From NCBI GenBank assembly GCA_031370005.1, contig JANMPT010000003.1, positions 16,229 through 80,228 on the forward strand: a DNA stretch of 64,000 nt, given 5' to 3'. The notes beneath the pieces are model-generated. The model worked only from the letters and a program-made list of their open reading frames with translations, had not been told where the DNA came from and searched no databases. Origin of the DNA: Bdellovibrionales bacterium (GTDB taxonomy: Bacteria; Bdellovibrionota; Bdellovibrionia; Bdellovibrionales; Bdellovibrionaceae). Each line of letters starts with the position of its first letter. Positions within the stretch are counted from its first letter, which is position 1. Of the stretch, positions 5,623 through 61,025 are shown piece by piece. The position numbers were made by a program, and so were the translations under genes.

Positions 5623-6315
5623 TCAAAAAAGGCCCGAAGCAATATTAATCGTTAGTGCCAACAGCGTTGTATTGAAAAAAAATGCCAACACACAATGCAA
5701 TAAGCCCGTACGACGCATCCCCCGCGAAGTAAAGCTTATATCCGCCGTTTGGGCGGAGGTGCCAATGATAAATGCAAAATAAAGAAAATCGCCATAGTCT
5801 GGATTTTCTTCACCAGGAAATAGAAGACCGCCAGAAATGCCTTTGTATAGTGAGGCATAGTAGTCGTGAGCATAGTGTATGGCAAACATCATATGGGTGA
5901 ACAGCCATGATGTGACGATGGTCAAGCCTGCAAGCGCGATATGAGTATAACGAGCGCTTCCGTGCAGTTCCTTTACGACCGCTAGCTCCGCAACAATCGC
6001 GGCCAGGGTTGAAATTGCCGCAAGGACCACAAGTAACAGAACCAAAACTTGTCCCTCATCCTCAAGCCTTGCGCGATGATTCATTTTTTCCCTGCTTGAC
6101 CAAAACATCATCCGTACCGCCAGCCCCAGATAAAGGCAAGCGCCGGAGTTCCAGGCAACGATGGAACGTGTAATACCATTGTGCGAAAGGGACTCGGGCA
6201 AAAATATCGCTACCAATATGCCAAAGAGGATCGAGATTGCCAGCCGTGGGCGAGCGACAATAATTCGAATTAAAAAAAACTGATGCTTACGAATTGAATG
6301 CGTGGCCAAAGACAC
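5623..6315 (-). CDS. DUF1345-like integral membrane protein
   Basis: 230-aa polytopic ORF containing the AIHYAHDYY motif typical of DUF1345. Confidence 0.55.
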
Positions 6316-6329
6316 TAGATACCTCTATA

Positions 6330-7472
6330 TTACTGATTTTTTGCCTTAAGCTGCTTAAATTTATTAGCAAAAAGATCGGTGACAGCATCAACATCATTTT
6401 CCCAAGTTTCGCCCTGCACCGGCTGAAGAGTCTGCACCCAACTATTAATGTTTTTCACTGAACGTGAATGGATAACGCCCAACTGATAGGCCTCATAAAG
6501 AATGATATCTCTATTGTCCGAGGCTGATTGCTTATCAAGAGCTACGCCGACATTGCCATCAAAACGGGGCCGAACCATCATAGACATATTATTGATTTGA
6601 ACAACGTTGTAATAAATGGAAATATTCGAGCTTTGGCTCAACTTAAGAGTTGTCATCACCCGATTGGCTGGATCAGGAATAGCCCCGAGCGCAACCGGAT
6701 AAATTGCCGGAGTCACTTCCTCCTTAAATTCCAAATGCACCAGGGACCCTTTGTTGTTTAAAAGAATTTCATATCTTAAAAGACCACCAGAACCACCACC
6801 GACTTTTACTGTTGCAAGCATATCAAGTAGTTTTGTATGCGGATCCACATAGGGCCGCAGGTAGACAAGAGCTTGCTTAATCTGCTTTGCTTCATCAGCA
6901 GTGACCTCTCTCATCGAGGAGTCCCGAATAAGCTTATTGCCACTTACTTTATTATCGCTTGGCCGAGTGCCTTTTTTTTGGCTCTTTTTCATCATGTCTT
7001 GAACTGCTGGCGGCATGTTATAATTTTGCCTTTGAATACCGGCTAGGTATGCAACTAAGATTTTATCAATCTTCGTACTATTGTCATACAGGCGAGAACT
7101 TACCATCAGTCGAAAAATATCCAAAACCACAGGACAAGGCCCTGAGTCGTCAATATCATTCATTGAAAATAAAGAAGCTCCGTTATTTTGTAATAGAACG
7201 CCAAAATTCTCAGGGTGAGCGTCTCCGACACACCAGCCAGGGACCCCCCAAGTTGAGGACAAAGATGGAAGGCTTGATCTGTTGGCTTTAACAATTAAGT
7301 AATAATAATCGACATAGGATCTTAAAAAATGAAATGCATCTTTGGCAGTGCTTAGTTTTTGTTGATCAAAATTATAATTTACATCTTGCAAACTGGCGCT
7401 AGCAACACCCCGTAGCGCAAGACCAAAAATCATAGAGAAGATTAAAATCGCTTTTTTACTTATAGCTATCAT
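6330..7472 (-). CDS. exported DUF2252-like protein
   Basis: 380-aa ORF with a signal peptide (ILIFSMIFGLALRGVASA) and a GDAHPENFG motif. Confidence 0.55.
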   Translation of the reverse strand: MIAISKKAILIFSMIFGLALRGVASASLQDVNYNFDQQKLSTAKDAFHFLRSYVDYYYLIVKANRSSLPSLSSTWGVPGWCVGDAHPENFGVLLQNNGASLFSMNDIDDSGPCPVVLDIFRLMVSSRLYDNSTKIDKILVAYLAGIQRQNYNMPPAVQDMMKKSQKKGTRPSDNKVSGNKLIRDSSMREVTADEAKQIKQALVYLRPYVDPHTKLLDMLATVKVGGGSGGLLRYEILLNNKGSLVHLEFKEEVTPAIYPVALGAIPDPANRVMTTLKLSQSSNISIYYNVVQINNMSMMVRPRFDGNVGVALDKQSASDNRDIILYEAYQLGVIHSRSVKNINSWVQTLQPVQGETWENDVDAVTDLFANKFKQLKAKNQ

Positions 7473-15344: not shown

Positions 15345-15365
15345 ACGATCATAAACTCCCATCGC

Positions 15366-15451
15366 GCGCGGGTGGTGAAATGGTAGACACGCAGGTCTCA
15401 GAAGCCTGTGGCCGAAAGGCTGTGGGGGTTCAAGTCCCCCCTCGCGCACCA
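15366..15451 (+). tRNA. tRNA-Leu (anticodon CAG), class II with long variable arm
   Basis: Hand-folded: acceptor GCGCGGG/CTCGCGC (one G-U pair), D-arm GTG-AAATGGTAGA-CAC, anticodon stem CAGGT/GCCTG with loop CTCAGAA. Variable arm is TGGCCGAAAGGCTGT, T-arm is GGGGG-TTCAAGT-CCCCC, discriminator is A and the CCA is encoded. Confidence 0.9.
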
Positions 15452-17127
15452 ATACCTACAGTACTCGAGCCGGCACGGGTTTGAGGAAATGGGATCACAG
15501 AACCTTCTTTTTTCAAATTTATAGAAATTCCATCGGTGCCGGTTGCTTTGAAGGGTGACGAAGTTTCTTCATCTTGTGGAGTTTCTGCGCCCTTTGCGGG
15601 CGCATACATTCCAATTTTGATTTTGGTTGGCTGAATCTCGATAAATTTAATCAGGTTTGCGAAAATCGGTCTTTGATTTTCAGGCTCTGAAATCTCAAGT
15701 CTATTAATAGTCTGCTTAATCCTATCTTTAAGACCATCTTCGTTAATTTGCTCAGACATAATCTGCATCGATTGAGATCTGAGTTTTTCTTTCGCAAATT
15801 TCAAATCGGCGAGCTTCACATTCAATTGTTTGATCTGCTCGTAGAATTGATCGGCGGGAAGATCTGCCGGCAACTCTGAAACTCTTTGCACAAGATTTGT
15901 GATCTTCTTGGCCGTTGTTTGAATTTCCGTGTCCATCACCTTTTGACGTGATTGCATCTCAGGCCAGTCACTTATGGACTTTTCTTTGTAAATGGCAATC
16001 CACTTTTCTATAAGGCCAGGTTCATTGAGAAGTTGTTTTAAGGACTTTAAAACAATCTCCTCTAACCGGTAAGCTCTCACGTTCTTGACCTGGCATTTAG
16101 GTTTTAGCTCCTGGGCCAGCGGATTCTTGATCTGCGAATGCCCATAGTAAAAATGCTTTTCTTTCCGGCCAATGCCGGATTTCCCACCCATAGCTTTGCC
16201 ACACTCACTGCATTGAATGAGTTCCGTCAGTGGAAAGGCATGATTTTTCCAGTCCTCAGGTTTATATTTATTTTTGTTCTTATGAAGGCGCTCTTGTACT
16301 TTGTTAAAAAAGGCTTCCTCGATGATTGGTTTCCAAACGGCAGAGACCAGCTCTCGATTTCCGTCAACATGAGCCACTTCGCGCTTTCCTAGGTAAATGG
16401 GGTTTGTCAAAAGACTTTGCAGAGTGTCCACGGTAAAAACATTACCGCCCTTATCAAGGCCGTGCTTGTTGGTGTACTTTTTGTTAAAGATTCCTTCTTT
16501 AATCAATCTGATTTGGGTCTTTCGGACTGATCCTTCCTCTATAAAAGTCTCAAATATTTTTATAACATCTGCCGATTCAAGATCGTTAATGAGCAGTTCA
16601 CCTTTGTTCTTGGGGTTTCGGTCATATCCTAGGGGGATGCTTCCACCGTTCCAAAGGCCACGTTTTGCCCGGCTAAGCCAGTTGGCAGAAATTCTCTCAG
16701 CGGTTTGTTTGCGCTCGTACTGGGCATAATTTATGAGGTTAAAAACCATCATCTCGCCCGATGCAGTTGTGGTATCAAAAGATTCTCGAAGGGTGATGAA
16801 GCTGGCCTGATGCTTTTTTAACAGATCCCTGATGTCACAAAAATCACGAATATTACGGGATAAACGGGACAGCTCAGTTGCCAAAATCAAATTCACACGG
16901 CCGCCCTGGACGTCGGCTAGCATTCTTCTGAACTCAGGCCGATTCATATCTTTGGCAGATCTACCTTCGTCACAATAGAATTCTACAATGTGACCCCAGT
17001 TGGCCTTGAGCTTGTTTTGATATTCCACATACTCAACAATTCGATTTTTCTGCGAGACCAGGGAGCCATCTACAATTCTGGCCTGCTCTTCCGTCGATAC
17101 CCGAATGTACACTCCGCAACGCTTCAT
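15430..17127 (-). CDS. large serine recombinase (resolvase/invertase catalytic domain, recombinase domain, zinc ribbon, coiled coil)
   Basis: 565-aa ORF with an N-terminal catalytic motif (GVYIRVSTEEQ) and LSRLSRN. Has a recombinase-domain region, a Cys cluster (CSECGKAMGG...C) and a long helical C-terminal part. The last ~7 codons and the stop lie inside the tRNA-Leu gene. Confidence 0.9.
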   Translation of the reverse strand: MKRCGVYIRVSTEEQARIVDGSLVSQKNRIVEYVEYQNKLKANWGHIVEFYCDEGRSAKDMNRPEFRRMLADVQGGRVNLILATELSRLSRNIRDFCDIRDLLKKHQASFITLRESFDTTTASGEMMVFNLINYAQYERKQTAERISANWLSRAKRGLWNGGSIPLGYDRNPKNKGELLINDLESADVIKIFETFIEEGSVRKTQIRLIKEGIFNKKYTNKHGLDKGGNVFTVDTLQSLLTNPIYLGKREVAHVDGNRELVSAVWKPIIEEAFFNKVQERLHKNKNKYKPEDWKNHAFPLTELIQCSECGKAMGGKSGIGRKEKHFYYGHSQIKNPLAQELKPKCQVKNVRAYRLEEIVLKSLKQLLNEPGLIEKWIAIYKEKSISDWPEMQSRQKVMDTEIQTTAKKITNLVQRVSELPADLPADQFYEQIKQLNVKLADLKFAKEKLRSQSMQIMSEQINEDGLKDRIKQTINRLEISEPENQRPIFANLIKFIEIQPTKIKIGMYAPAKGAETPQDEETSSPFKATGTDGISINLKKEGSVIPFPQTRAGSSTVGIGARGGT

Positions 17128-17318
17128 GCGACCTCGCTTTCGATAAAGTCCTTTTGAATGGCCTCAGTTTTATCATGGTCATTGCCCATTTCAAGTAGGC
17201 ATTTTATGACGCGAGCTACGCGCTCGTTATAATCTTCCTCAGTTATTTTAATCTTCACGACCGCCACATTTTCTTCGTAAACGTAATCATTTTTAGAACC
17301 CATTATTTTAATCCCCAC
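17124..17318 (-). CDS. small hypothetical protein translationally coupled to the recombinase
   Basis: 64-aa ORF with a GTG start; an alternative ATG lies at 17301-17303. Its TGA stop overlaps the recombinase ATG (ATGA overlap at 17124-17127). No family recognised. Confidence 0.4.
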   Translation of the reverse strand: MGIKIMGSKNDYVYEENVAVVKIKITEEDYNERVARVIKCLLEMGNDHDKTEAIQKDFIESEVA

Positions 17319-17398
17319 ATACCAATCACCTCCCGGCTCAAGTTTTATTTTTCAAATTTTCATGCCTCCGTTTTTCCTTTCTTCGTTTTCAGTTTTAG

Positions 17399-18388
17399 TT
17401 ATCCACATTTCTCATAACCCCTCTCCGTCACATCTTTATCAGTCCCAGATCCCTCTTCTCCGGCCACAGCTTCTGACCCCAGTCCACCTTTCGTTGGGGG
17501 AGTGGGGTCAGAAGCGATCAGTGGCCGGTTCCCAGGTTCTGTTTTTTCTGAATTTATTTGTGATGGAGAGGGGTTATCTGCAATTTCCGCGTTCAAATTT
17601 TGGTCGGCTTTGTTGCTCACCCCTTGAGTAGCTTTGTTTCCCTCTGATTTCCACACATCAAAGGCCAATTCGCCAAATGAGACAAAGCGGCTATCTTTTA
17701 AAAAGAAAACTTTTGAGTCTCTTTTATTCTTAAAAAAGTCATTAAGGTGGCTCACAAAGATATGCTGCCGATCATTTCTAAAACTTTGCTTTTGCCAACC
17801 GGCTTTAAGTGCATGGACAAGGCCCTTGTCTTTGATGAAGTACCAAATAATATCAATACGGTTTTTGTCAGCGTACTCAGTGAATGTTTCCCGGTATCTC
17901 AAGTGGCTTTTCTGAGTAAGCTCTAGCTCCACCGCAATCACCAAAGCTTTGCCATTCATCATCTCCGCCATGAGCCCATCTGGGATGATTTTGTTACGGG
18001 CTTTTTTATAATCATGTCTGAAAGCTCCTGCCTTCATGACACATTCGGAAGTCCACTCAAGGCCAAGATTCATTGCCTCAAAGGCAAGTCTCAAGTCATT
18101 CAAAAGCACATCATGTTCAATGGTGTTGCGGTTTGAAAATTTAAATGAGTCTTCTAAACCGAGAAGTCTTCGGCCGCCAACATCAAGCCGCCAGGTGTTT
18201 GTGCCATTCTTTAATGTCACTCCGCGAGAGATAAAACGCCCTTCCTCTAAAAGGCGCAGCCGCTTCATGACAGTGGTGTGGGCAACACCCTTAAAAAAGA
18301 GAGCCCCAATTTGACGAGTCGAGAGGACTCCAAATTTATAAATACTGGCAATAATTTCTTTGTCCCTTGCCTGTAACTTCATCCCCAA
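17399..18388 (-). CDS. replication-relaxation (Replic_Relax-like) family protein
   Basis: 329-aa ORF with an N-terminal winged-helix-like segment (RDKEIIASIYKFGVLSTRQIGALFF...TVMKRLRLLEEGRFI). It is followed by IEHD...IPDG...AVELELTQKS, a nuclease-fold-like motif pattern of this family, and has a low-complexity acidic/Pro-rich tail. Confidence 0.65.
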   Translation of the reverse strand: MGMKLQARDKEIIASIYKFGVLSTRQIGALFFKGVAHTTVMKRLRLLEEGRFISRGVTLKNGTNTWRLDVGGRRLLGLEDSFKFSNRNTIEHDVLLNDLRLAFEAMNLGLEWTSECVMKAGAFRHDYKKARNKIIPDGLMAEMMNGKALVIAVELELTQKSHLRYRETFTEYADKNRIDIIWYFIKDKGLVHALKAGWQKQSFRNDRQHIFVSHLNDFFKNKRDSKVFFLKDSRFVSFGELAFDVWKSEGNKATQGVSNKADQNLNAEIADNPSPSQINSEKTEPGNRPLIASDPTPPTKGGLGSEAVAGEEGSGTDKDVTERGYEKCG

Positions 18389-18987
18389 TGTCCTTTGATG
18401 ATTTCATTGATGGCTTTTTTGCTCACGACTTTAAGACTTTTCTCGTGAGCTTGACGGGCCAGCTCCTCGGAAATCTTGCGCTCATATTCAACCTCCTGGG
18501 CCTTCAGAATTTCCAACTGCTTCGCCTCATACTTTTTACGGCGTTCATTGGCCGCAGTGATTTTGGCTTGTTCCATCTGCTGACGCTGTTCTTCCGGCAA
18601 AGCCATATAGGCATTTTCTTTTTCAATTCGCCCCAACTCAATCCGCTGAAGAATAGCCTGGCATTCCAGTTCATCCAGCTCGGCTTGGGTGAGACGCTTT
18701 TCTTCGGCCAATTGCTTTTGCTTGTGGGTCCAATTATTCAAAAAGAATTTCAAGGCAGGGGTAGAAATCAGAAATAGAAAAAATAGGCCAGCGCAGATCA
18801 GGCAAAGGTAAACTGCATTGACCTCCATGCGCCATAGAGGCCCAACAAGACCATCCCAAAGGAAATGGCCCCTGTGATCAAGACCACTGATCCAAAAGCC
18901 CCAACGAAGCACGTTAAAGAGAAATACACACATGCCCAGTTTTATTAAGAGCACTTTCTCAAAATTTTTTATAGGCACCTCCCTCAT
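18379..18987 (-). CDS. hypothetical membrane protein with C-terminal coiled coil
   Basis: 202-aa ORF with two to three hydrophobic helices, then a charged heptad-like region (KQKQLAEEKRLTQAELDELECQAILQRIELGRIEKEN...). Its stop overlaps the next ORF's start by 10 nt. Confidence 0.45.
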   Translation of the reverse strand: MREVPIKNFEKVLLIKLGMCVFLFNVLRWGFWISGLDHRGHFLWDGLVGPLWRMEVNAVYLCLICAGLFFLFLISTPALKFFLNNWTHKQKQLAEEKRLTQAELDELECQAILQRIELGRIEKENAYMALPEEQRQQMEQAKITAANERRKKYEAKQLEILKAQEVEYERKISEELARQAHEKSLKVVSKKAINEIIKGHWG

Positions 18988-18989
18988 TT

Positions 18990-19056
18990 AAAAATCACTC
19001 GCTTCTCATAGGTAATATCAAAAACGATGCCGTATTCGTGTCGCAGAGTGATTTTT
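18990..19056. promoter_or_regulatory. 11-bp inverted repeat (AAAAATCACTC ... GAGTGATTTTT) immediately upstream of the module's first ORF
   Basis: The arms at 18990-19000 and 19046-19056 are exact reverse complements. The proximal arm lies 3 nt from the ATG at 18985-18987. Confidence 0.4.
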
Positions 19057-19112
19057 CTATAAGCCTTTGTTTTCAAGACACAAAAATGATTTCCATACTT
19101 TTTGTGGCCCGC

Positions 19113-19140
19113 TTTAAGTGACGAAACTTCGTCACTTAAA
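19113..19140. repeat. perfect 28-bp palindrome containing TGACGAA-NN-TTCGTCA (copy 1 of 3)
   Basis: TTTAAGTGACGAA-ac-TTCGTCACTTAAA, with 13-bp arms that are exact reverse complements. Confidence 0.9.
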
Positions 19141-19217
19141 ATTTAGGCTCGCCCTCGGTTTTGAACCTCAATTGAATCAATTCACCAACTTAGCAACGAC
19201 GAGACCTCGACACGATT

Positions 19218-19233
19218 TGACGAACATTCGTCG
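19218..19233. repeat. TGACGAA-NN-TTCGTC(g) palindrome (copy 2 of 3)
   Basis: TGACGAA-ca-TTCGTCg has the same half-sites and spacing as copies 1 and 3, with one terminal mismatch. Confidence 0.85.
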
Positions 19234-19308
19234 CACACGACTTTTTAAAATTGCAAGGCCATGCCAGCATGACCGAAAAGTGATTTAAGTTTTGGGAAAC
19301 TCAAACGA

Positions 19309-19330
19309 ATATTGAGATCCATCTCAATAT
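19309..19330. repeat. perfect palindrome ATATTGAGAT-cc-ATCTCAATAT
   Basis: The 10-bp arms are exact reverse complements. Confidence 0.9.
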
Positions 19331-19340
19331 GATAGGGCTG

Positions 19341-19367
19341 AAAAGTTTCAAATAATTTGAAACTTTT
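19341..19367. repeat. perfect 27-bp palindrome AAAAGTTTCAAAT-a-ATTTGAAACTTTT
   Basis: The 13-bp arms are exact reverse complements. The TTTCAAAT core recurs in the next inverted repeat. Confidence 0.9.
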
Positions 19368-19402
19368 TTTTGGGTCTTGAATGAAATCATAGACTTGAGT
19401 CA

Positions 19403-19438
19403 TTTCAAATTTCTTGAAGACTTTCAGGAAATTTGAAA
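19403..19438. repeat. inverted repeat TTTCAAATTTC - 14 nt - GAAATTTGAAA
   Basis: The 11-bp arms at 19403-19413 and 19428-19438 are exact reverse complements. They share the TTTCAAAT core with the 19341-19367 palindrome. Confidence 0.85.
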
Positions 19439-19465
19439 CCTCAAGCTCTGGCTGGGTTTTTCGGG

Positions 19466-19481
19466 TGACGAAATTTCGTCA
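19466..19481. repeat. perfect palindrome TGACGAA-at-TTCGTCA (copy 3 of 3)
   Basis: TGACGAAATTTCGTCA is self-complementary over 16 bp. Confidence 0.9.
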
Positions 19482-19596
19482 TTTCAGAGGTCGACTTTAC
19501 CGGTAATCGCAGTGGGTATAAGTGCTTAAAATTGTTGAGGTAAATCGGCTACGTTTTTAGACTAAAATTTCGATGCCGATGAAATCAATTTATCCG

Positions 19597-19624
19597 TGGG
19601 GTTCGAATCCCTCCCTCTCCGCCA
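19597..19624 (+). pseudogene. orphan tRNA 3' fragment (T-arm, acceptor 3' strand, G discriminator and CCA; tRNA-Ser-like)
   Basis: TGGGG-TTCGAAT-CCCTC-CCTCTCC-G-CCA. The ...CTCTCCGCCA end resembles bacterial tRNA-Ser. No complementary GGAGAGG 5' strand, D-arm or anticodon arm lies within 100 nt upstream. Confidence 0.7.
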
Positions 19625-19718
19625 TTTCCGAAAGTCTGGTTGTGAAAGGCGACCTCAATAAGGACGGTTGGGAATAAACCCTCGGGGGAATAAAGAAGAG
19701 AGCAAGCCCAAACGGCCG

Positions 19719-20585
19719 TCACAATAGTGATGAAAGATTTTCGGTAAGAAATTTTTTAAATGAAATAGCATCTCGCTTCAAAATATCGGAAACCACAGAT
19801 GTTGGTTTAGAGAACTGGCCATTTGCGATGTTCTCACCCAGTTTCGTGAGATCGCTTGCCAACCAAGCGGGATATCCCATAGCAGTTAGCCCCTGCACGA
19901 GTTGTTGAGAAGGCATGTTTACATAATTTATTTCTCTTTTTAAAAGTGAAGTTAGCGCCTCTGCCGCATCGCTGAACGAAATCGCCTCACTTCCCGAGAT
20001 CACATAAGTTTTTCCCGCGTGACCGTTTTCCTGAAGGCAGGCGACGGCTACTGCGGCAATGTCGCGAGCATCAACCATTGCGAGTAAACCATCACTATAA
20101 TTTCCATACACTGCATTCTGTGATTTAATCGCCCCAGCCTGTGCAATGAAGTTCTGCATAAAAAAATAGGGTTGCAGGATTGAAAATGAAATTTCAGAGT
20201 TTTTTAGGTAATCGTCAGCTTTGGCATGCTGTTGTGCTTGTGATATTGGAGAATCCTTACTTGCTCCAGCCCCGGAAAGCATAACGATTCGCCTTACGCC
20301 AACCTTTTTAGCAACATCAATAGCATTTTTCTTCAATTCAGCTTCATTTTGAGTAGGGGGTGCCAACAAAAAAAGCCTTTCAATTCCGGTGAGTGCTTTT
20401 TCCAGGCTAGACAAATCCTCTAAATCCCCAGTTACCGCTTCGATATTGAGTTCCTCCGCCATCTTCGCGGATTTGGAACTGCGAGAAAGCATTTTTGTTT
20501 GAATATGCGATTTAGAAAGTTGTTTGAGAACCTCGATTCCAACTTTGCCCGTACCGCCAATAACGAGAATCATATTACGCTCCAT
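19719..20585 (-). CDS. NmrA-family / atypical SDR NAD(P)-binding oxidoreductase
   Basis: 288-aa ORF with an N-terminal Rossmann motif (ILVIGGTGKVG) and NmrA-like length and layout. Confidence 0.75.
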   Translation of the reverse strand: MERNMILVIGGTGKVGIEVLKQLSKSHIQTKMLSRSSKSAKMAEELNIEAVTGDLEDLSSLEKALTGIERLFLLAPPTQNEAELKKNAIDVAKKVGVRRIVMLSGAGASKDSPISQAQQHAKADDYLKNSEISFSILQPYFFMQNFIAQAGAIKSQNAVYGNYSDGLLAMVDARDIAAVAVACLQENGHAGKTYVISGSEAISFSDAAEALTSLLKREINYVNMPSQQLVQGLTAMGYPAWLASDLTKLGENIANGQFSKPTSVVSDILKRDAISFKKFLTENLSSLL

Positions 20586-20600
20586 CTTGCTAATGTGGGT

Positions 20601-21041
20601 TTAAGTCAGAAGCTTGTGCAACTTCTCAAATGAGCTTTCCCAGCCATGGGTGTGGCCGGAGCAATCCTTTTCATCAATGAATCCAGTTTGACTAAGCGTG
20701 ATTTCAGTCCCATCAGCTACTTTTCGAAATTCAACTGTCACCGTTGTGTGTGGCGCGGGACCTCTCCAAGTACCTGTGCAATCAAATACAAGGCGCTCAT
20801 TTGGAACAATTTCCATGTAGGTGCCAGACATGTTGCCGGTAGTCTGTTGGCCACGCATCTCTCCTTCCATAGAAATAACAAATTTTCCGCCCACTTTAAA
20901 ATCAACTTGGACCTCAGGAATTGATAATGTTCCCGGAGCAAACCAGCTTTTTAGTAAATTTGGGCTTTTCCAAGCATCAAAAACTTTCTCCGGGGACGCC
21001 TTTATCGTCTTTTTCATTTGTACTTTAATGTTTGGGTTCAT
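20601..21041 (-). CDS. SRPBCC (AHSA1/START-like) domain protein
   Basis: Start moved to the ATG 21039-21041, behind a GGAGGAG RBS. The sequence IKASPEKVFDAWKSPNLLKSWFAPG...GGKF...ERLVF...GTEITL is typical of Aha1-like SRPBCC proteins, which are commonly paired with ArsR regulators. Confidence 0.7.
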   Translation of the reverse strand: MNPNIKVQMKKTIKASPEKVFDAWKSPNLLKSWFAPGTLSIPEVQVDFKVGGKFVISMEGEMRGQQTTGNMSGTYMEIVPNERLVFDCTGTWRGPAPHTTVTVEFRKVADGTEITLSQTGFIDEKDCSGHTHGWESSFEKLHKLLT

Positions 21042-21369
21042 GTTTTTTCTCCTCCAAAAGTTCTTGAAGCGCGTCCAAACGATTGCCCCAAAATTGTTGA
21101 TAATATGAAATCCATTGATCTGCCGTCTTAAGAGTCTCGGCATTGAGACTGACAATCTGATAACTGCCCTCTTTTTTCCTGTCGATTAACTTTGCGTTCT
21201 CAAGCACCTTGAGATGCTTCGATACAGCCGCTAAAGACATTGTAAATGGCTTGGCAATTTCGCTCACGGTTTTTTGCTTCTTCGATATGCCTCGCATTAT
21301 GGAGCGACGAGTAGAATCTGCCAAAGCATGAAAAATTAGGTCTAATTGTCCTATTTCAGATTTAACCAT
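21025..21369 (-). CDS. ArsR/SmtB-family transcriptional regulator
   Basis: 114-aa ORF. FHALADSTRRSIMRGISKKQKTVSEIAKPFTMSLAAVSKHLKVLENAKLI is the ArsR winged-helix signature. Confidence 0.85.
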   Translation of the reverse strand: MVKSEIGQLDLIFHALADSTRRSIMRGISKKQKTVSEIAKPFTMSLAAVSKHLKVLENAKLIDRKKEGSYQIVSLNAETLKTADQWISYYQQFWGNRLDALQELLEEKKHEPKH

Positions 21370-21415
21370 ATGGTTTAATGATAACAGATTCTACTATAGA
21401 GTCAACCATTTGGTT
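21361..21415. promoter_or_regulatory. two AACCA/TGGTT-type palindromes at the arsR start (candidate ArsR operators)
   Basis: TTTAACCAT-ATGGTTTAA (21361-21378, one mismatch) overlaps the start codon. AACCA-tt-TGGTT lies at 21404-21415. Confidence 0.35.
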
Positions 21416-21566
21416 AAATCATTGAAAAGGTTCGGAATTAATCGAGCTCTCGGAAATAATCTCAGAATTCAGCATTGGGCATTACCGGACAGAAGTGCCA
21501 CCCAAGTTACTCTTTTAAAGAAAATCGAGAGCGAATTAAGATTTGCGCTTTTTTCCCCAATCGTAC

Positions 21567-22048
21567 ATGGCATCCAATATCGGTCGAAGGCTCCTGCCTG
21601 AATCCGTCTTCTATTTTTATTTGTTTCTCAAGCCTTTGCCCAGAATATCCCGACCGAGTCTCCGGTGCTTGAGGATGTGATCATCAACTCGATGAGCGTC
21701 ACTTACCCTTCTCCTTATAAGATTTCGATGGCAACTTATCTTGGACAAGCTCCGAAATATCGGCAGACGGCTACATATAATTGTGGACTGAGTGCACGCA
21801 ACGGCTATGACCTCTGGTGCTGGGGATTTTCTGGGGGCGGCGCCCAATTGCGTATGTTTCCAGATTTGGGAATCGATTCGAAAAATTTGCGCCTTCCCCC
21901 CGAGTCAGGGAACACCTTTGCCCGTATGAATACGACCAAGACCAATTGCGAGAAAATGCAACAGGATCTTGCAAATGCGAGCTCAGAGAAACAATTTGTT
22001 CTCCGCGTTTATGGCAACAGAAGCTTTACTTTAACTCCACGGCCTTAA
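21567..22048 (+). pseudogene. possible frameshifted gene for a small exported protein
   Basis: ATG at 21567 opens MASNIGRRLLPESVFYFYLF in one frame. The neighbouring frame reads IRLLFLFVSQAFA-QNIPTESPV and continues into the 127-aa ORF 21665-22048. The two frames meet at the T-rich run 21611-21623. Confidence 0.3.
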
Positions 22049-22063
22049 ACGAAGTTGCAACCC

Positions 22064-22306
22064 CTATGCTTTCTTTCTAAAAACGGTCTGCTCAAGCTTT
22101 TCTAGACGGTCCTCTACAGAGTCATGGGACTCAATAGATTTTCTGAGAAACCAATTTAAGAAGGTTTGGTATCCCATTCCTTGTTTCTCGCCCTCAGATT
22201 CCAACCATTCAATGACCTCAGCATCAAGCCGAAAAGTCTTGATGACTTTGATGTCTTTTGCTTTTTTACCCCTTTTTGCCTTTGAGAAATCATATTCATT
22301 TTTCAT
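22064..22306 (-). CDS. brnA: BrnA-family antitoxin
   Basis: 80-aa ORF. KTFRLDAEVIEWLESEGEKQGMGYQTFLNWFLR matches the BrnA pattern. Lies directly downstream of the BrnT-like ORF. Confidence 0.8.
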   Translation of the reverse strand: MKNEYDFSKAKRGKKAKDIKVIKTFRLDAEVIEWLESEGEKQGMGYQTFLNWFLRKSIESHDSVEDRLEKLEQTVFRKKA

Positions 22307-22309
22307 AAC

Positions 22310-22588
22310 TCACCTCGAAAGATATTGGTTTGACTCGGTTTTGGTGGCTGGTCTTGCAGAGATAATTCGGACCCGCTCACCCTCAATTTTTTCACAATAA
22401 ACAACCACTAACAAATTGGCCTTTCGTGATATCCCCAGCCTAAGCCATCTCTCTTCATCATGAGAGTGTTCTGGGTCTGGAGTTTCTAGGGCAGAATTAT
22501 CAAGCCAAATGGTTATTGCCTCAGAAAAGCGAATCCCATGCTTTTTATAGTTGCTGTCTGCCTTGGTGTCGTCCCACTCAAAGTCCAT
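22310..22588 (-). CDS. brnT: BrnT-family (DUF497) toxin
   Basis: 92-aa ORF. FEWDDTKADSNYKKHGIRFSEA...DEERW...VRIISARPATKTE is the BrnT signature. Confidence 0.85.
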   Translation of the reverse strand: MDFEWDDTKADSNYKKHGIRFSEAITIWLDNSALETPDPEHSHDEERWLRLGISRKANLLVVVYCEKIEGERVRIISARPATKTESNQYLSR

Positions 22589-22637
22589 AATTCACTATAT
22601 TATATTGTTATTACTTTGTAAATACATTTTTAAAATC

Positions 22638-22877
22638 TCATATAGTTGGTTTTAAAGCGTTTTGCCGCACAAAGGCCTCTGAAGCCCCAATGGCCCTCGC
22701 TGTTTTCCCGGAATTCCCATATTTCTTGATAAGCGTCAGCAGGTCGGCCGGCAAAAGGGCCTTCGGCTCCGCAACAACCTCAAATTCAGCTTGAAACACC
22801 GGCTCAGATCGAAATAAAGTGCTCGCAGAGATGGCGAGCGGTTCGTCTACTTCGGTGACTTTGGCACCATTTAACAT
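22638..22877 (-). CDS. small hypothetical protein with C-terminal HTH-like segment
   Basis: 79-aa ORF. The C-terminus LIKKYGNSGKTARAIGASEAFVRQN looks like a Fis/resolvase-type HTH. A degenerate second copy of its 3' end lies at 24443-24489. Confidence 0.35.
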   Translation of the reverse strand: MLNGAKVTEVDEPLAISASTLFRSEPVFQAEFEVVAEPKALLPADLLTLIKKYGNSGKTARAIGASEAFVRQNALKPTI

Positions 22878-22892
22878 TTTCAGTCACTTGTA

Positions 22893-22934
22893 CCAATACG
22901 GCGAATGGCTTTTTCAATTCAAATTCAATACTTA
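22893..22934. repeat. 42-bp perfect direct repeat, copy 1
   Basis: CCAATACGGCGAATGGCTTTTTCAATTCAAATTCAATACTTA is identical to 24490-24531. Confidence 0.95.
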
Positions 22935-23225: not shown

Positions 23226-23528
23226 TTAGCCGACGGCTTTCTTCGTTCTCTTTGCATTGAGGGCTCGTGTTTTGGCGCGATTCAAAGTGTCCTTTGTCGA
23301 TTGGTCCGTGACACGACTCACTCGTCCTTGAGCAATATCAACAAGGCCAACAGTCAGCCCATGCAGCCTAGCAAGATCGAGCTGCATTTTCTCAAAAACG
23401 TCGGCATTAAGAAGAACGAAGGCTTCCCCAGATTTTCGAGTGATTTTAACAGGCTCAACCCTTGCGGCTTCCATCCACTCTTTCATATTTGATCTGAAGT
23501 CATTGGCATTTGTTCTGTCCATAGACAC
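23226..23528 (-). CDS. Phd/YefM-family antitoxin
   Basis: 100-aa ORF. The N-terminus NANDFRSNMKEWMEAARVEPVKITRKSGEAFVLLNADVFEKM is typical of Phd/YefM. AGGAGG RBS upstream. Confidence 0.8.
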   Translation of the reverse strand: MSMDRTNANDFRSNMKEWMEAARVEPVKITRKSGEAFVLLNADVFEKMQLDLARLHGLTVGLVDIAQGRVSRVTDQSTKDTLNRAKTRALNAKRTKKAVG

Positions 23529-23751: not shown

Positions 23752-24063
23752 TTAGCTCGCCTTAGAAAAACTAAAACCAAACTCAAAGTGACCACCACAA
23801 GCGGCCGCTATGCGAGCCAACAGCGGAATAGACGGCACTCGCTTATCAGAACCACCCTCAAGTCTTGCAATCACACTTTGAGTCGTTCCAATCAGTTTAG
23901 CTAATTGAGCCTGAGTTAAGTCAGCTTTCATGCGCGCAGCTCTAACCGCATGCGCGATTTCAGTTTTAGATTTTTCTTCTTCAAACTGAATACGAACTTC
24001 TTTGTCTTTTAATATTTTTTGAAAAAATGGCTTTGCTGATTTGTATGATTTTTTATTTTTCAT
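23752..24063 (-). CDS. higA: XRE-family HTH antitoxin (HigA-like)
   Basis: 103-aa ORF with an HTH (LTQAQLAKLIGTTQSVIARLEGG). Its start overlaps the stop of the upstream toxin ORF by 4 nt. Confidence 0.8.
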   Translation of the reverse strand: MKNKKSYKSAKPFFQKILKDKEVRIQFEEEKSKTEIAHAVRAARMKADLTQAQLAKLIGTTQSVIARLEGGSDKRVPSIPLLARIAAACGGHFEFGFSFSKAS

Positions 24064-24395
24064 AATCCTAAAACCTCTTTCATTCTTTTTTCAGCGATTT
24101 CAAGATCGCCCGTTGGTGTTTTCTGAGTTTTCTTTTTAAAAGCATGAAGCCAAACCATCGTATTTGTTTCAACAACAACATAGGCTATGCGGTAGCTGCC
24201 GCTTGGTGTATTAAACTTTACTTCCCAGAGTTTACCGCGAAGCTGCCTAAACTGAACACGCGGACAACCTAATCCATATTTTTCAATACCTTCAAAGACA
24301 TCAGCAAAACGTGCTTGATCTGCTTTTGGCAGATCACTGATAAAATCTTCGATTGGGCTTCGTCCTGACGACGTTTCGTAAAGAGCTACTTTCAC
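24060..24395 (-). CDS. higB: HigB / phage Gp49-like RelE-superfamily toxin
   Basis: 111-aa ORF. GKLWEVKF...YRIAYVV...VWLHAFKKKTQKTPTGDLEIAEKRMKE is the Gp49/HigB pattern. The toxin-first gene order is typical of HigBA. Confidence 0.8.
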   Translation of the reverse strand: MKVALYETSSGRSPIEDFISDLPKADQARFADVFEGIEKYGLGCPRVQFRQLRGKLWEVKFNTPSGSYRIAYVVVETNTMVWLHAFKKKTQKTPTGDLEIAEKRMKEVLGL

Positions 24396-24427: not shown

Positions 24428-24489
24428 CAAGATTTTTTTAATTTAGCTATTCTGCCCTACAAAGGCCTGACTAGCGCCGACCGTGTCAG

Positions 24490-24531
24490 CCAATACGGCG
24501 AATGGCTTTTTCAATTCAAATTCAATACTTA
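24490..24531. repeat. 42-bp perfect direct repeat, copy 2
   Basis: Identical to 22893-22934. It is preceded (24453-24489) by a shortened relative of the 3' end of ORF 22638-22877. Confidence 0.95.
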
Positions 24532-60331: not shown

Positions 60332-61025
60332 CATAACCAAAAAGATTATAGATCCTCTTCCACTTTTCGCAGTGAGATGCTTCTATCTTTAACGTCTTAT
60401 CTAACCAAGGGTGAGTAAATTCTAAGCTCTGGGCTTTCAAACAAAGCCCTAAGACTCCTAAGTCGTTTTTGAAAAAACGATTTTGCCGGCAATCACCATG
60501 ATCCGCATCGCCGATCAAAGGGTGTGATATTCTGTTGAAATGCCGACGCAATTGGTGCCAACGTCCTGTTAAAGGCTTGGCCTCTACTAAAGAATATCTT
60601 GCCGTCGAAAATCTTTTAATCACTGCTACTGGAAACTCCACCGTAGCCATTCTAGAATAAGTTGTCTTTGCTTCAACTAAGTCTCCGGTTGAATCCAGCT
60701 CCAAAGGCAATTCAATGTCGCCATTTTCAGGAGTATAACCACGAGCCACTGCATGATAGGTTTTCAGCATGGATTTCTCAGCAAAAAGTTTACACAAAAT
60801 GCTCGCCGATGCTGACGAAAGAGCGAAAAGCAAAACTCCGCTTGTTCCCGCATCCAAACGATGTACTGGATAAACATATTTACCCATCATATTTCGAGCT
60901 AAGTAAAGACAAGTTTTATCTCTTGAAATGCGGTTTCTTTTGTCTTCATGGGGGTGAACATGAAAGCCCGAGGGCTTATCGACCGCAATAAAATGCTCAT
61001 CTTGATAAAGAAGTTTCAGGCTCAT
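60318..61025 (-). CDS. RluA-family pseudouridine synthase (TruC-like)
   Basis: 235-aa ORF with catalytic motif HRLDAGTSGVLLFA and HQLRRH. Confidence 0.85.
   Translation of the reverse strand: MSLKLLYQDEHFIAVDKPSGFHVHPHEDKRNRISRDKTCLYLARNMMGKYVYPVHRLDAGTSGVLLFALSSASASILCKLFAEKSMLKTYHAVARGYTPENGDIELPLELDSTGDLVEAKTTYSRMATVEFPVAVIKRFSTARYSLVEAKPLTGRWHQLRRHFNRISHPLIGDADHGDCRQNRFFKNDLGVLGLCLKAQSLEFTHPWLDKTLKIEASHCEKWKRIYNLFGYVNGG

Follow-up and report, generated by a model that had tools for sequence, protein, structure and literature searches.

Large serine integrases of phages and integrative elements, such as those of phiC31, Bxb1, A118/LI and TP901-1 and SprA of SPbeta, are major tools of genome engineering, and control of their direction is generally ascribed to separate directionality factors. 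In mycobacteriophages such as BPs, which use a tyrosine integrase, the phage attachment site (attP) lies inside the repressor gene and integration alters the C-terminus of the protein. Here we characterized an element in a stretch of 64,000 nucleotides from a Bdellovibrionales bacterium (assembly GCA_031370005.1, contig JANMPT010000003.1, positions 16,229 to 80,228; this whole stretch is called the window, and positions are counted from its first letter), which carries a large serine recombinase (LSR) gene that reads into tRNA-Leu(CAG). Very probably, the element was inserted at the 3' end of this tRNA gene by its own LSR, with attP lying inside the LSR gene and the insertion severing a conserved tail from it.

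As far as the available parts of the literature go, serine integrases are not known to target tRNA genes, and the accessible text of a survey of Mycobacterium prophages reports chromosomal attachment sites (attB) overlapping tRNA genes only for tyrosine integrases (PMC10654092). An attP inside the integrase gene is likewise described, in the portions available, only for tyrosine enzymes (Mx8 and SSV), whose integrases extend across attP (available sections of PMC4383910); in Mx8, according to the excerpts of PMC6070905, integration gives the integrase a new 3' end, and the enzyme is active with changed properties. The 'suicidal' integrases of the SSV type carry the recombination site inside their own gene, which is fragmented on integration (accessible passages of PMC8371274 and PMC7253208), and a review, in its available part, regards gene-disrupting recombinases as exclusive to archaea. 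No description of a serine integrase that targets tRNA genes or splits its own gene was found in the literature searched, outside which most subscription journals lie.

The element resembles the large serine integrases in its set of Resolvase, Recombinase and zinc ribbon domains and in its short attachment sites, which have dyad-like P and P' arms and share a small core, but it differs from the known ones in targeting the 3' end of a tRNA gene, in having attP inside the integrase open reading frame (ORF), and in a predicted helix-turn-helix (HTH)-like C-terminal domain that belongs only to the unintegrated gene. As with IntP/IntX of Mx8, attP falls inside the part of the integrase gene that is translated, and integration produces a recombinant gene whose 3' end is new; Mx8 Int, however, is a tyrosine recombinase of unrelated fold and chemistry, and a change of properties would follow here only by analogy. 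The recombination site lies inside the gene of the integrase itself as in the SSV type, whereas the enzyme here is a bacterial serine recombinase, with no domains found other than those of serine recombinases, and what the cut takes off is a C-terminal accessory domain alone, the catalytic and DNA-binding domains staying together. Unlike in the integration-dependent immunity of the BPs type, integration here splits the gene of the serine integrase, not that of a repressor. An element whose serine integrase both targets tRNA genes and cuts its own gene appears to be a new combination, self-splitting being known from tyrosine enzymes.

The recombinase gene ends inside tRNA-Leu(CAG)

Two convergent genes overlap at the left end of the element:

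15366 to 15451, plus strand: tRNA-Leu(CAG), the integration target, intact after integration (ARAGORN; Rfam RF00005, 55.7 bits)
15430 to 17127, minus strand: LSR, truncated form of the integrated state, 565 aa (ORF list, Pfam)

The 565-aa protein is an LSR by its domain set, with Resolvase (PF00239, E = 2.9e-30, residues 6-158), Recombinase (PF07508, E = 8.4e-12, residues 188-284) and Zn_ribbon_recom (PF13408, E = 7.1e-08, residues 299-363) all above the cut-off. The Rfam match of the tRNA covers 15366-15448, and the parts read from the sequence are the T-loop (15429-15435), the 3' strand of the T-stem (15436-15440), the 3' acceptor strand (15441-15447), A73 (15448) and CCA (15449-15451). The LSR ORF, with the C-terminus ...STVGIGARGGT, overlaps the tRNA by 22 nt (15430-15451), made up of six codons (T, G, G, R, A, G) with the stop behind them and a single base of an Ile codon ahead. 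The six codons correspond to the 3' strands of the T-stem and the acceptor stem, to A73 and to CC, and TCA at 15430-15432 in the T-loop supplies, as its reverse complement, the stop TGA. Residues encoded by the element run to ...GIGA, and the last four (RGGT) together with the stop come from the tRNA. The initial annotation had stated that the ORF runs antisense into tRNA-Leu, with its TGA and last codons in the T-arm and acceptor stem, and that it crosses the junction of element and chromosome; the first statement is correct at base level, and the second is borne out by the position of the left junction (attL) inside the end of the ORF.

The T-arm and 3' acceptor end of tRNA-Leu(CAG) are identical in four other genomes of the same genus (G001, G003, G004 and G006), and the sequences of the same-genus genomes diverge completely past its CCA. 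On the other side of the tRNA, three same-genus loci (L016, L017 and L010) have a gene of about 0.95 kb (ORF of 295-297 aa) between a conserved 102-aa ORF and tRNA-Leu(CAG), and this genome has a gap of only 21 nt (15345-15365) at that place.

Overlap with tRNA genes is a trait of the family

Public genomes were scanned with an alignment of three recombinases (those of the window, of G002 and of G040) as the query, which gave 58 homologous loci, nearly all labelled Bdellovibrionota or its subgroups. A 65%-identical recombinase of G002, of the same genus, has the tail GAPRGT and stops 22 nt within tRNA-Leu(TAG), and the homologous recombinase of G040, of another family, has the tail GAPEWI and stops 22 nt within tRNA-Leu(GAG). 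In 15 of the 58 loci (Leu 10, Met 2, His 2, Pro 1) the recombinase frame reaches exactly 22 nt into a convergent tRNA before it stops, and in ten more (Leu 5, Pro 2, and one each of Ser, Phe and Ala), where the T-loop lacks an in-frame stop, it reads 58-241 nt into or through such a tRNA; the other 33 have no overlapping tRNA, have a broken frame or reach the contig end. Because 25/58 homologous loci thus end in or read through a convergent tRNA, the overlap is not due to chance.

The tails track the tRNA, with GARGGT in Leu-CAG, GAPRGT in Leu-TAG and GAPEWI in Leu-GAG, and the stop is supplied by a T-loop of the TTCAA type; with a TTCGA T-loop the frame continues past it. A comparison of the C-terminal ends of homologues, which the initial annotation had proposed, agrees with a junction-derived end, in that tails in other tRNAs follow the sequence of that tRNA. 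Where the context could be checked, the same tail did not occur in an unrelated one: the identical GARGGT tail of L039 lies likewise in a tRNA-Leu(CAG). Three further database proteins, outside that check, end in GARGGT. At the same tRNA-Leu(CAG) in G003, a 43%-identical recombinase (L016, 4033-5734) is split into ORFs of 310 and 182 aa, the latter of which also stops 22 nt inside the tRNA.

Attachment sites and extent of the element

The right junction came to light in a search for GC plus ACCA placed behind an arm similar to the P' arm in inverted form. The window reads, at 22830-22869, GGTTCGTCTACT, then 12 nt, GC (22864-22865) and ACCA, so that a P arm of the form GGTTCG(T/C)(C/T)TACT followed by 12 nt, GC and ACCA is located 7,412 nt from the tRNA end. 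The two attachment sites of the integrated element are:

15406 to 15489: attL, with the B half-site up to 15445 (tRNA T-arm and acceptor), the predicted central GC at 15446-15447 and the P' half-site from 15448
22824 to 22907: attR, with the P half-site (GGTTCGTCTACT), the central GC at 22864-22865 and the B' half-site (ACCA and the native flank downstream of the tRNA)

An empty site exists in the same-genus genome G006, in which the 3' end of tRNA-Leu(CAG) and its flank align to 22864-22934 at 82%, from GCACCA on. Because of the right junction and this unoccupied site, we take the element to span 15446 to 22865, which is 7,418 bp. The right end at about 19.5-19.6 kb that the initial annotation had assumed does not hold, since the junction is at 22864-22865. 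Among the candidates rejected, the one at about 19.6 kb is a tRNA-Ser-like fragment with B-type (14-nt) spacing inside the element, and a hand-found 12/16 match at 19510-19525 was dropped because the flank does not open with ACCA. No inverted copy of the P' arm was found with up to 7 mismatches, and local alignment of the 3' 45 nt of the tRNA against the element side in 16 loci (the window and 15 others) gave mostly noise, in which only an 11-nt repeat of L039 held and the best match of the window was the tRNA-Ser-like fragment.

The P-arm motif was present with identical spacing at the far ends of L025, L039, L047 and L053, that is, in 5 of 11 Leu-tRNA loci including the window, and L041, L045 and L055 gave three more far junctions among 21 loci examined. 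The distance from GTTC to GC was 14 nt in the B arm and 19 nt in the P arm (5/5 elements each), and 19 nt in the P' arm of four of the five elements, the P' arm of the window having GCTC at that position. A 5-bp outward shift of the outer motif in attP relative to attB half-sites, reportedly described by Rutherford et al. in 2013, is said to be a hallmark of LSR sites, and the geometry of the motif-bearing half-sites, with P-type arms longer by 5 bp, fits this rule.

The sequence shared by attL and attR is only GCACCA (tRNA nt 71-76) in the window and 6-12 bp in other elements. The central GC of attL corresponds to tRNA nt 71-72, where strand exchange most likely occurs judging from symmetry, and the P' half-site lies inside the LSR coding sequence. 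In the rebuilt attB of L025 and L047, a hairpin and a T-run were seen by eye right after the tRNA, which appears as expected for the native 3' flank of a tRNA gene.

The severed 3' part of the recombinase gene

Directly at the right end of the element lies the following piece:

22641 to 22865, minus strand: 3' part severed from the recombinase gene, 75 codons (74 and the shared Ala), in frame with ...GIGA on joining the ends

When the element ends were joined in silico, the LSR frame of the window continued for 74 codons past the shared Ala. An in-frame continuation of 66-76 residues was obtained in 5/5 elements and also in the three further ones, so that the frame is continuous in all eight elements with a far junction. 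The P' half-site encodes ...GSSTVGIG, the core GCACCA gives the Gly-Ala codons and the P half-site encodes ...EVDEP..., and because the conserved GSSTV and EVDEP are the translations of the P' and P motifs, the whole attP lies inside the coding sequence. The integrase is self-splitting in this sense, with attP inside its ORF and the gene altered on integration.

The tail pieces are homologous: in an alignment of 20 of them the mean column identity is 51%, and positions around an ...IGASEAFVRQN motif are invariant or nearly so. TGGT stands directly before the tail piece, whose first codon is GCN, in 20 of 25 pieces, and the frame is that of the recombinase Gly-Ala. By profile hidden Markov model (HMM) search, a tail piece is present in 23 of the 58 loci, on the recombinase strand and upstream of the recombinase in all but two, namely L029, which has a second, reversed piece, and L030, in which the piece lies downstream of a truncated recombinase; this is the placement expected for a 3' end that has been cut off. 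In the window the tail lies about 5.5 kb from the start of the recombinase gene and faces inward. It sits in an ORF (22638..22877) with its ATG four codons into the chromosomal flank, a start that is not conserved elsewhere; because this ORF begins at an ATG in the flank, separate expression of the tail is possible.

A search with the tail profile in a library of 1.84 billion proteins gave 250 matches at E<=0.001. P0042 (427 aa) has the Recombinase and Zn_ribbon domains and, uninterrupted, the tail at residues 364-424; P0001 resembles residues 502-561 of the window LSR and then runs directly into the tail; P0029 is an LSR C-terminus running into the tail, as judged by eye only; and P0006 is a deletion derivative matching the tail profile. 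The first three show that the gene occurs naturally in unbroken form. In the viral contig collection there was no relative of the tail. The expectation of the initial annotation that the recombinase C-terminus differs between the integrated and excised states is supported by the frame continuity on joining the ends, and the size of the difference had been understated: a 4-residue tRNA-derived end in the integrated state stands against a conserved 74-residue domain in the excised one.

Predicted structure of the tail

An AlphaFold2 (AF2) model from the 20-sequence alignment has helices at 39-49, 52-59 and 63-70 with pLDDT of about 90, after a poorly ordered linker. The top rows of Foldseek (N15 Cro, Aca1 and KorB) and most of the 50 matches listed by VIA were HTH DNA-binding domains, with the DNA-binding domain of Tn3 resolvase at Z 3.1; HTHs of a mycobacteriophage repressor, of LysR and of sigma region 4 were also among the fold matches listed. 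The tail is predicted to be HTH-like and tri-helical, and we carry its assignment no further than that.

Alternative explanations

Several observations weigh against the insertion of the element through an attP inside its own recombinase gene. The P arm was absent, at the criteria used, from 6 of the 11 Leu-tRNA loci and from 17 of the 21 loci examined in addition, which otherwise comprise three tail-bearing reconstructions and the ambiguous L062, and the B' half-sites have no recognisable motif. The crossover can be placed only within the six shared bases, the choice of GC resting on symmetry. Because three Leu-tRNA loci with 5.7-9.6 kb of element-side sequence (L033, L034 and L036) have no tail piece, and because L026 and L052 have P-type arms at the recombinase end with stops 1 and 12 codons after the Ala, the tail domain is not universal in the clade. 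As regards the tail itself, its fold matches are weak (none in Foldseek at E<=0.001; best VIA Z 3.8), and Pfam and PHROGs assign it no family, Pfam yielding no more than weak hits to individual members. The natural fused ORFs (P0042, P0001 and P0029) all fall short of full length, a search for longer proteins with the tail gave only two, of 139 and 163 aa, and a search with the recombinase C-terminus gave 10 close homologues, all of which, at 323-565 aa, are shorter than the fused form of about 640. Among the best 150 of the 250 tail matches, most are stand-alone ORFs of 44-130 aa, so the tail could be expressed alone. For this genome, neither an excised circle nor an empty site was seen in the assembled contigs, which are themselves uninformative on excision. 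L026 was considered as a contig in the free attP state and rejected, having no terminal overlap; its context contains toxin-antitoxin and insertion sequence (IS) genes.

It is improbable, though of the alternatives this one fares best, that the 74 residues at attR belong to a separate small gene, such as one for a regulator or a directionality factor, that abuts the attachment site with an incidental continuity of frame, the recombinase then having its natural end in the core. The predominance of stand-alone ORFs among the tail relatives, the ATG that opens ORF 22638..22877 four codons outside the core, and the lack of a fused-length protein among the 10 close homologues would suit such a gene. 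Against this, conservation begins exactly at the core, neither a start codon nor a region upstream being evidently conserved, each locus has a different flank ahead of TGGT-GC, all 8/8 reconstructions have an unbroken frame, and natural ORFs go from LSR domains straight into the tail. The stand-alone ORFs of 44-130 aa are the split state as gene callers see it.

A very small chance is given to the proposal, made as an option in the initial annotation, that the recombinase gene has lost its native 3' end, leaving a remnant that is locked in place and decaying. All three domains are present in an intact recombinase ORF, the tail severed at attR keeps an intact frame of 75 codons, motifs, spacing and GC are retained in the P, P' and B arms, and depth is even across the element, all of which speaks against decay, although no excised form occurs in the assembled contigs and other decayed copies exist, such as a relic tail at 24446-24490 and two contigs of this genome (C5 and C114) with an attL relic and a stop-containing tail piece. 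The even depth of about 11 across the element in the assembled contigs, which show no alternative joints, has no bearing on excision; the breaks between contigs coincide with the tRNA, the tRNA-Ser-like fragment and a 42-bp repeat.

The classical tRNA-island mode, in which the element would carry its own tRNA 3' end and the tail codons would be unchanged on excision, can be set aside almost entirely: the tRNA is indeed intact after integration, and its 3' end is identical to that of element-free genomes, so that sequence alone cannot assign the last 22 nt, but no second copy of the 3' 25 nt of tRNA-Leu(CAG) exists in the window with up to 3 mismatches allowed, attL and attR share only GCACCA, the P arm is unlike the B arm with its motif 5 bp further out, closely related recombinases in different tRNAs carry different tails, and the locus departs from tRNA islands of the Islander type in its serine integrase, its lack of a displaced tRNA-Leu 3' fragment and its mere 6 bp of shared sequence.

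Proposed mechanism and its significance

On the favoured reading, insertion by the element's own LSR through an attP within the LSR gene, the free circular element would express a full-length enzyme of about 640 aa, which would recognise the tRNA T-arm and acceptor end as the B half-site and exchange strands at GC. This exchange within GCACCA would truncate the enzyme's own gene; the element would supply A73-CCA, and tRNA-Leu remains whole because the exchange joins the tRNA body to the element-borne ACCA. The integrated gene keeps all LSR domains, followed by four tRNA-encoded residues and the TGA of the T-loop. Excision, for which the element may still be competent, would rebuild the full recombinase gene of about 640 aa. 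The HTH of the tail might bind element DNA and thereby assist integration or repress transcription.

By analogy with IntP/IntX of Mx8, we tentatively suggest, with somewhat less than even confidence, a state-dependent switch of isoforms in which the full-length enzyme comes from the free circle only. The tethered HTH of the circle form would then aid or regulate integration or repress the element, and the prophage-like state would make a truncated enzyme of altered activity or directionality. More doubtful is a general rule for the tRNA-targeting LSR clade of Bdellovibrionota, in which gene topology would set the state of the enzyme, integration-proficient or self-repressing in the circle, and truncated with different directionality or activity when integrated; the integrated copy might also make the tail as a separate protein from the chromosomal flank. 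If true, this would be a serine-recombinase counterpart of Mx8 IntP/IntX, and control of directionality would not rest on a separate directionality factor alone.

The use of the conserved tRNA T-arm and acceptor end as attB by this clade, with the tRNA left intact, would add a target class, and the rewriting of the enzyme's own C-terminus at each integration and excision may be a built-in state switch. Tools that look for displaced tRNA fragments are expected to miss such islands, in which the severed tail would be annotated as an orphan small ORF.

Other genes of the element

Between the recombinase gene and the right end, the element contains the following:

17124 to 17318, minus strand: 64-aa ORF with a 4-nt overlap with the LSR start (ORF list; no Pfam or PHROG family match)
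17399 to 18388, minus strand: Replic_Relax protein (PF13814, Pfam E = 1.4e-08, above cut-off; phrog_2190)
18379 to 18987, minus strand: 202-aa ORF, function not assigned (no Pfam or PHROG hit at family cut-off)
18988 to 19718: non-coding, palindrome-rich region including a tRNA-Ser-like 3' fragment (about 19590-19625)
19719 to 22588, minus strand: cargo genes, whole block (Pfam)
19719 to 20585, minus strand: NmrA-like gene (Pfam)
20601 to 21155, minus strand: AHSA1/SRPBCC gene (Pfam)
21025 to 21369, minus strand: ArsR-type HTH gene (Pfam)
22064 to 22306, minus strand: BrnA antitoxin (Pfam)
22310 to 22588, minus strand: BrnT toxin (Pfam)

Matches to the 64-aa ORF were found by tblastn directly upstream of the recombinase in 6 other loci, and it could be a candidate accessory or directionality factor. 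Homologues of the Replic_Relax protein, probably a mobilisation or replication protein, lie upstream of the recombinase in 18 other loci, and the element is integrative and probably mobilisable. Contigs identical to 19097-19465, with almost nothing else of the element, were seen in X2 and X3, two runs of another study.

The tRNA-Ser-like fragment (T-arm, acceptor and CCA) matches the tRNA-Ser(TGA) of this genome on contig C3, by hand alignment, at 28 of 29 positions (97% over 29 nt). Behind it comes TTTCC..., similar to the beginning of a P' arm, and the fragment may be the attL relic of an element once inserted in tRNA-Ser. Elsewhere, the recombinase frame of L048 enters a tRNA-Ser, and a core of the tRNA-Ser type stands before the L050 tail piece.

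Signs of repeated insertion

A perfect 42-bp direct repeat (22892-22933 and 24489-24530) brackets a 1.55-kb segment that is absent from G006, and the native flank resumes past the second copy. This segment contains toxin-antitoxin-like pairs:

23226 to 23528: Phd/YefM-type
24060 to 24395: Gp49/HigB-like gene, with HTH_3 at 23752 to 24063

A relic of the C-terminus of the tail domain (...ADTVGASQAFVGQNS) lies at 24446-24490 on the minus strand, directly left of the second flank copy, and the minus-strand reading of the 'native' flank is itself similar to a tail piece in decay. These decayed relics near tRNA-Leu(CAG) suggest repeated past insertions. Elsewhere in this genome (G000), contig C5, which has no recombinase, carries tRNA-Leu(TAG) followed by a P'-like recombinase-tail relic at 60834-60946, and contig C114 carries a 72%-identical tail piece with an internal stop at 6162-6367; together the two look like a second, decayed element.

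Eighteen metagenome loci showed mostly attR-type junctions. Four loci (L090-L093) have a P'-like coding relic joined to the tail and no detectable recombinase, and may be read as decayed or serial insertions. In these four and in L053 (G002, about 5675-6334), the tail is fused in frame to a P'-like relic, not to chromosomal flank, and such attP-like hybrid joints would fit serial insertion beside decayed resident copies.

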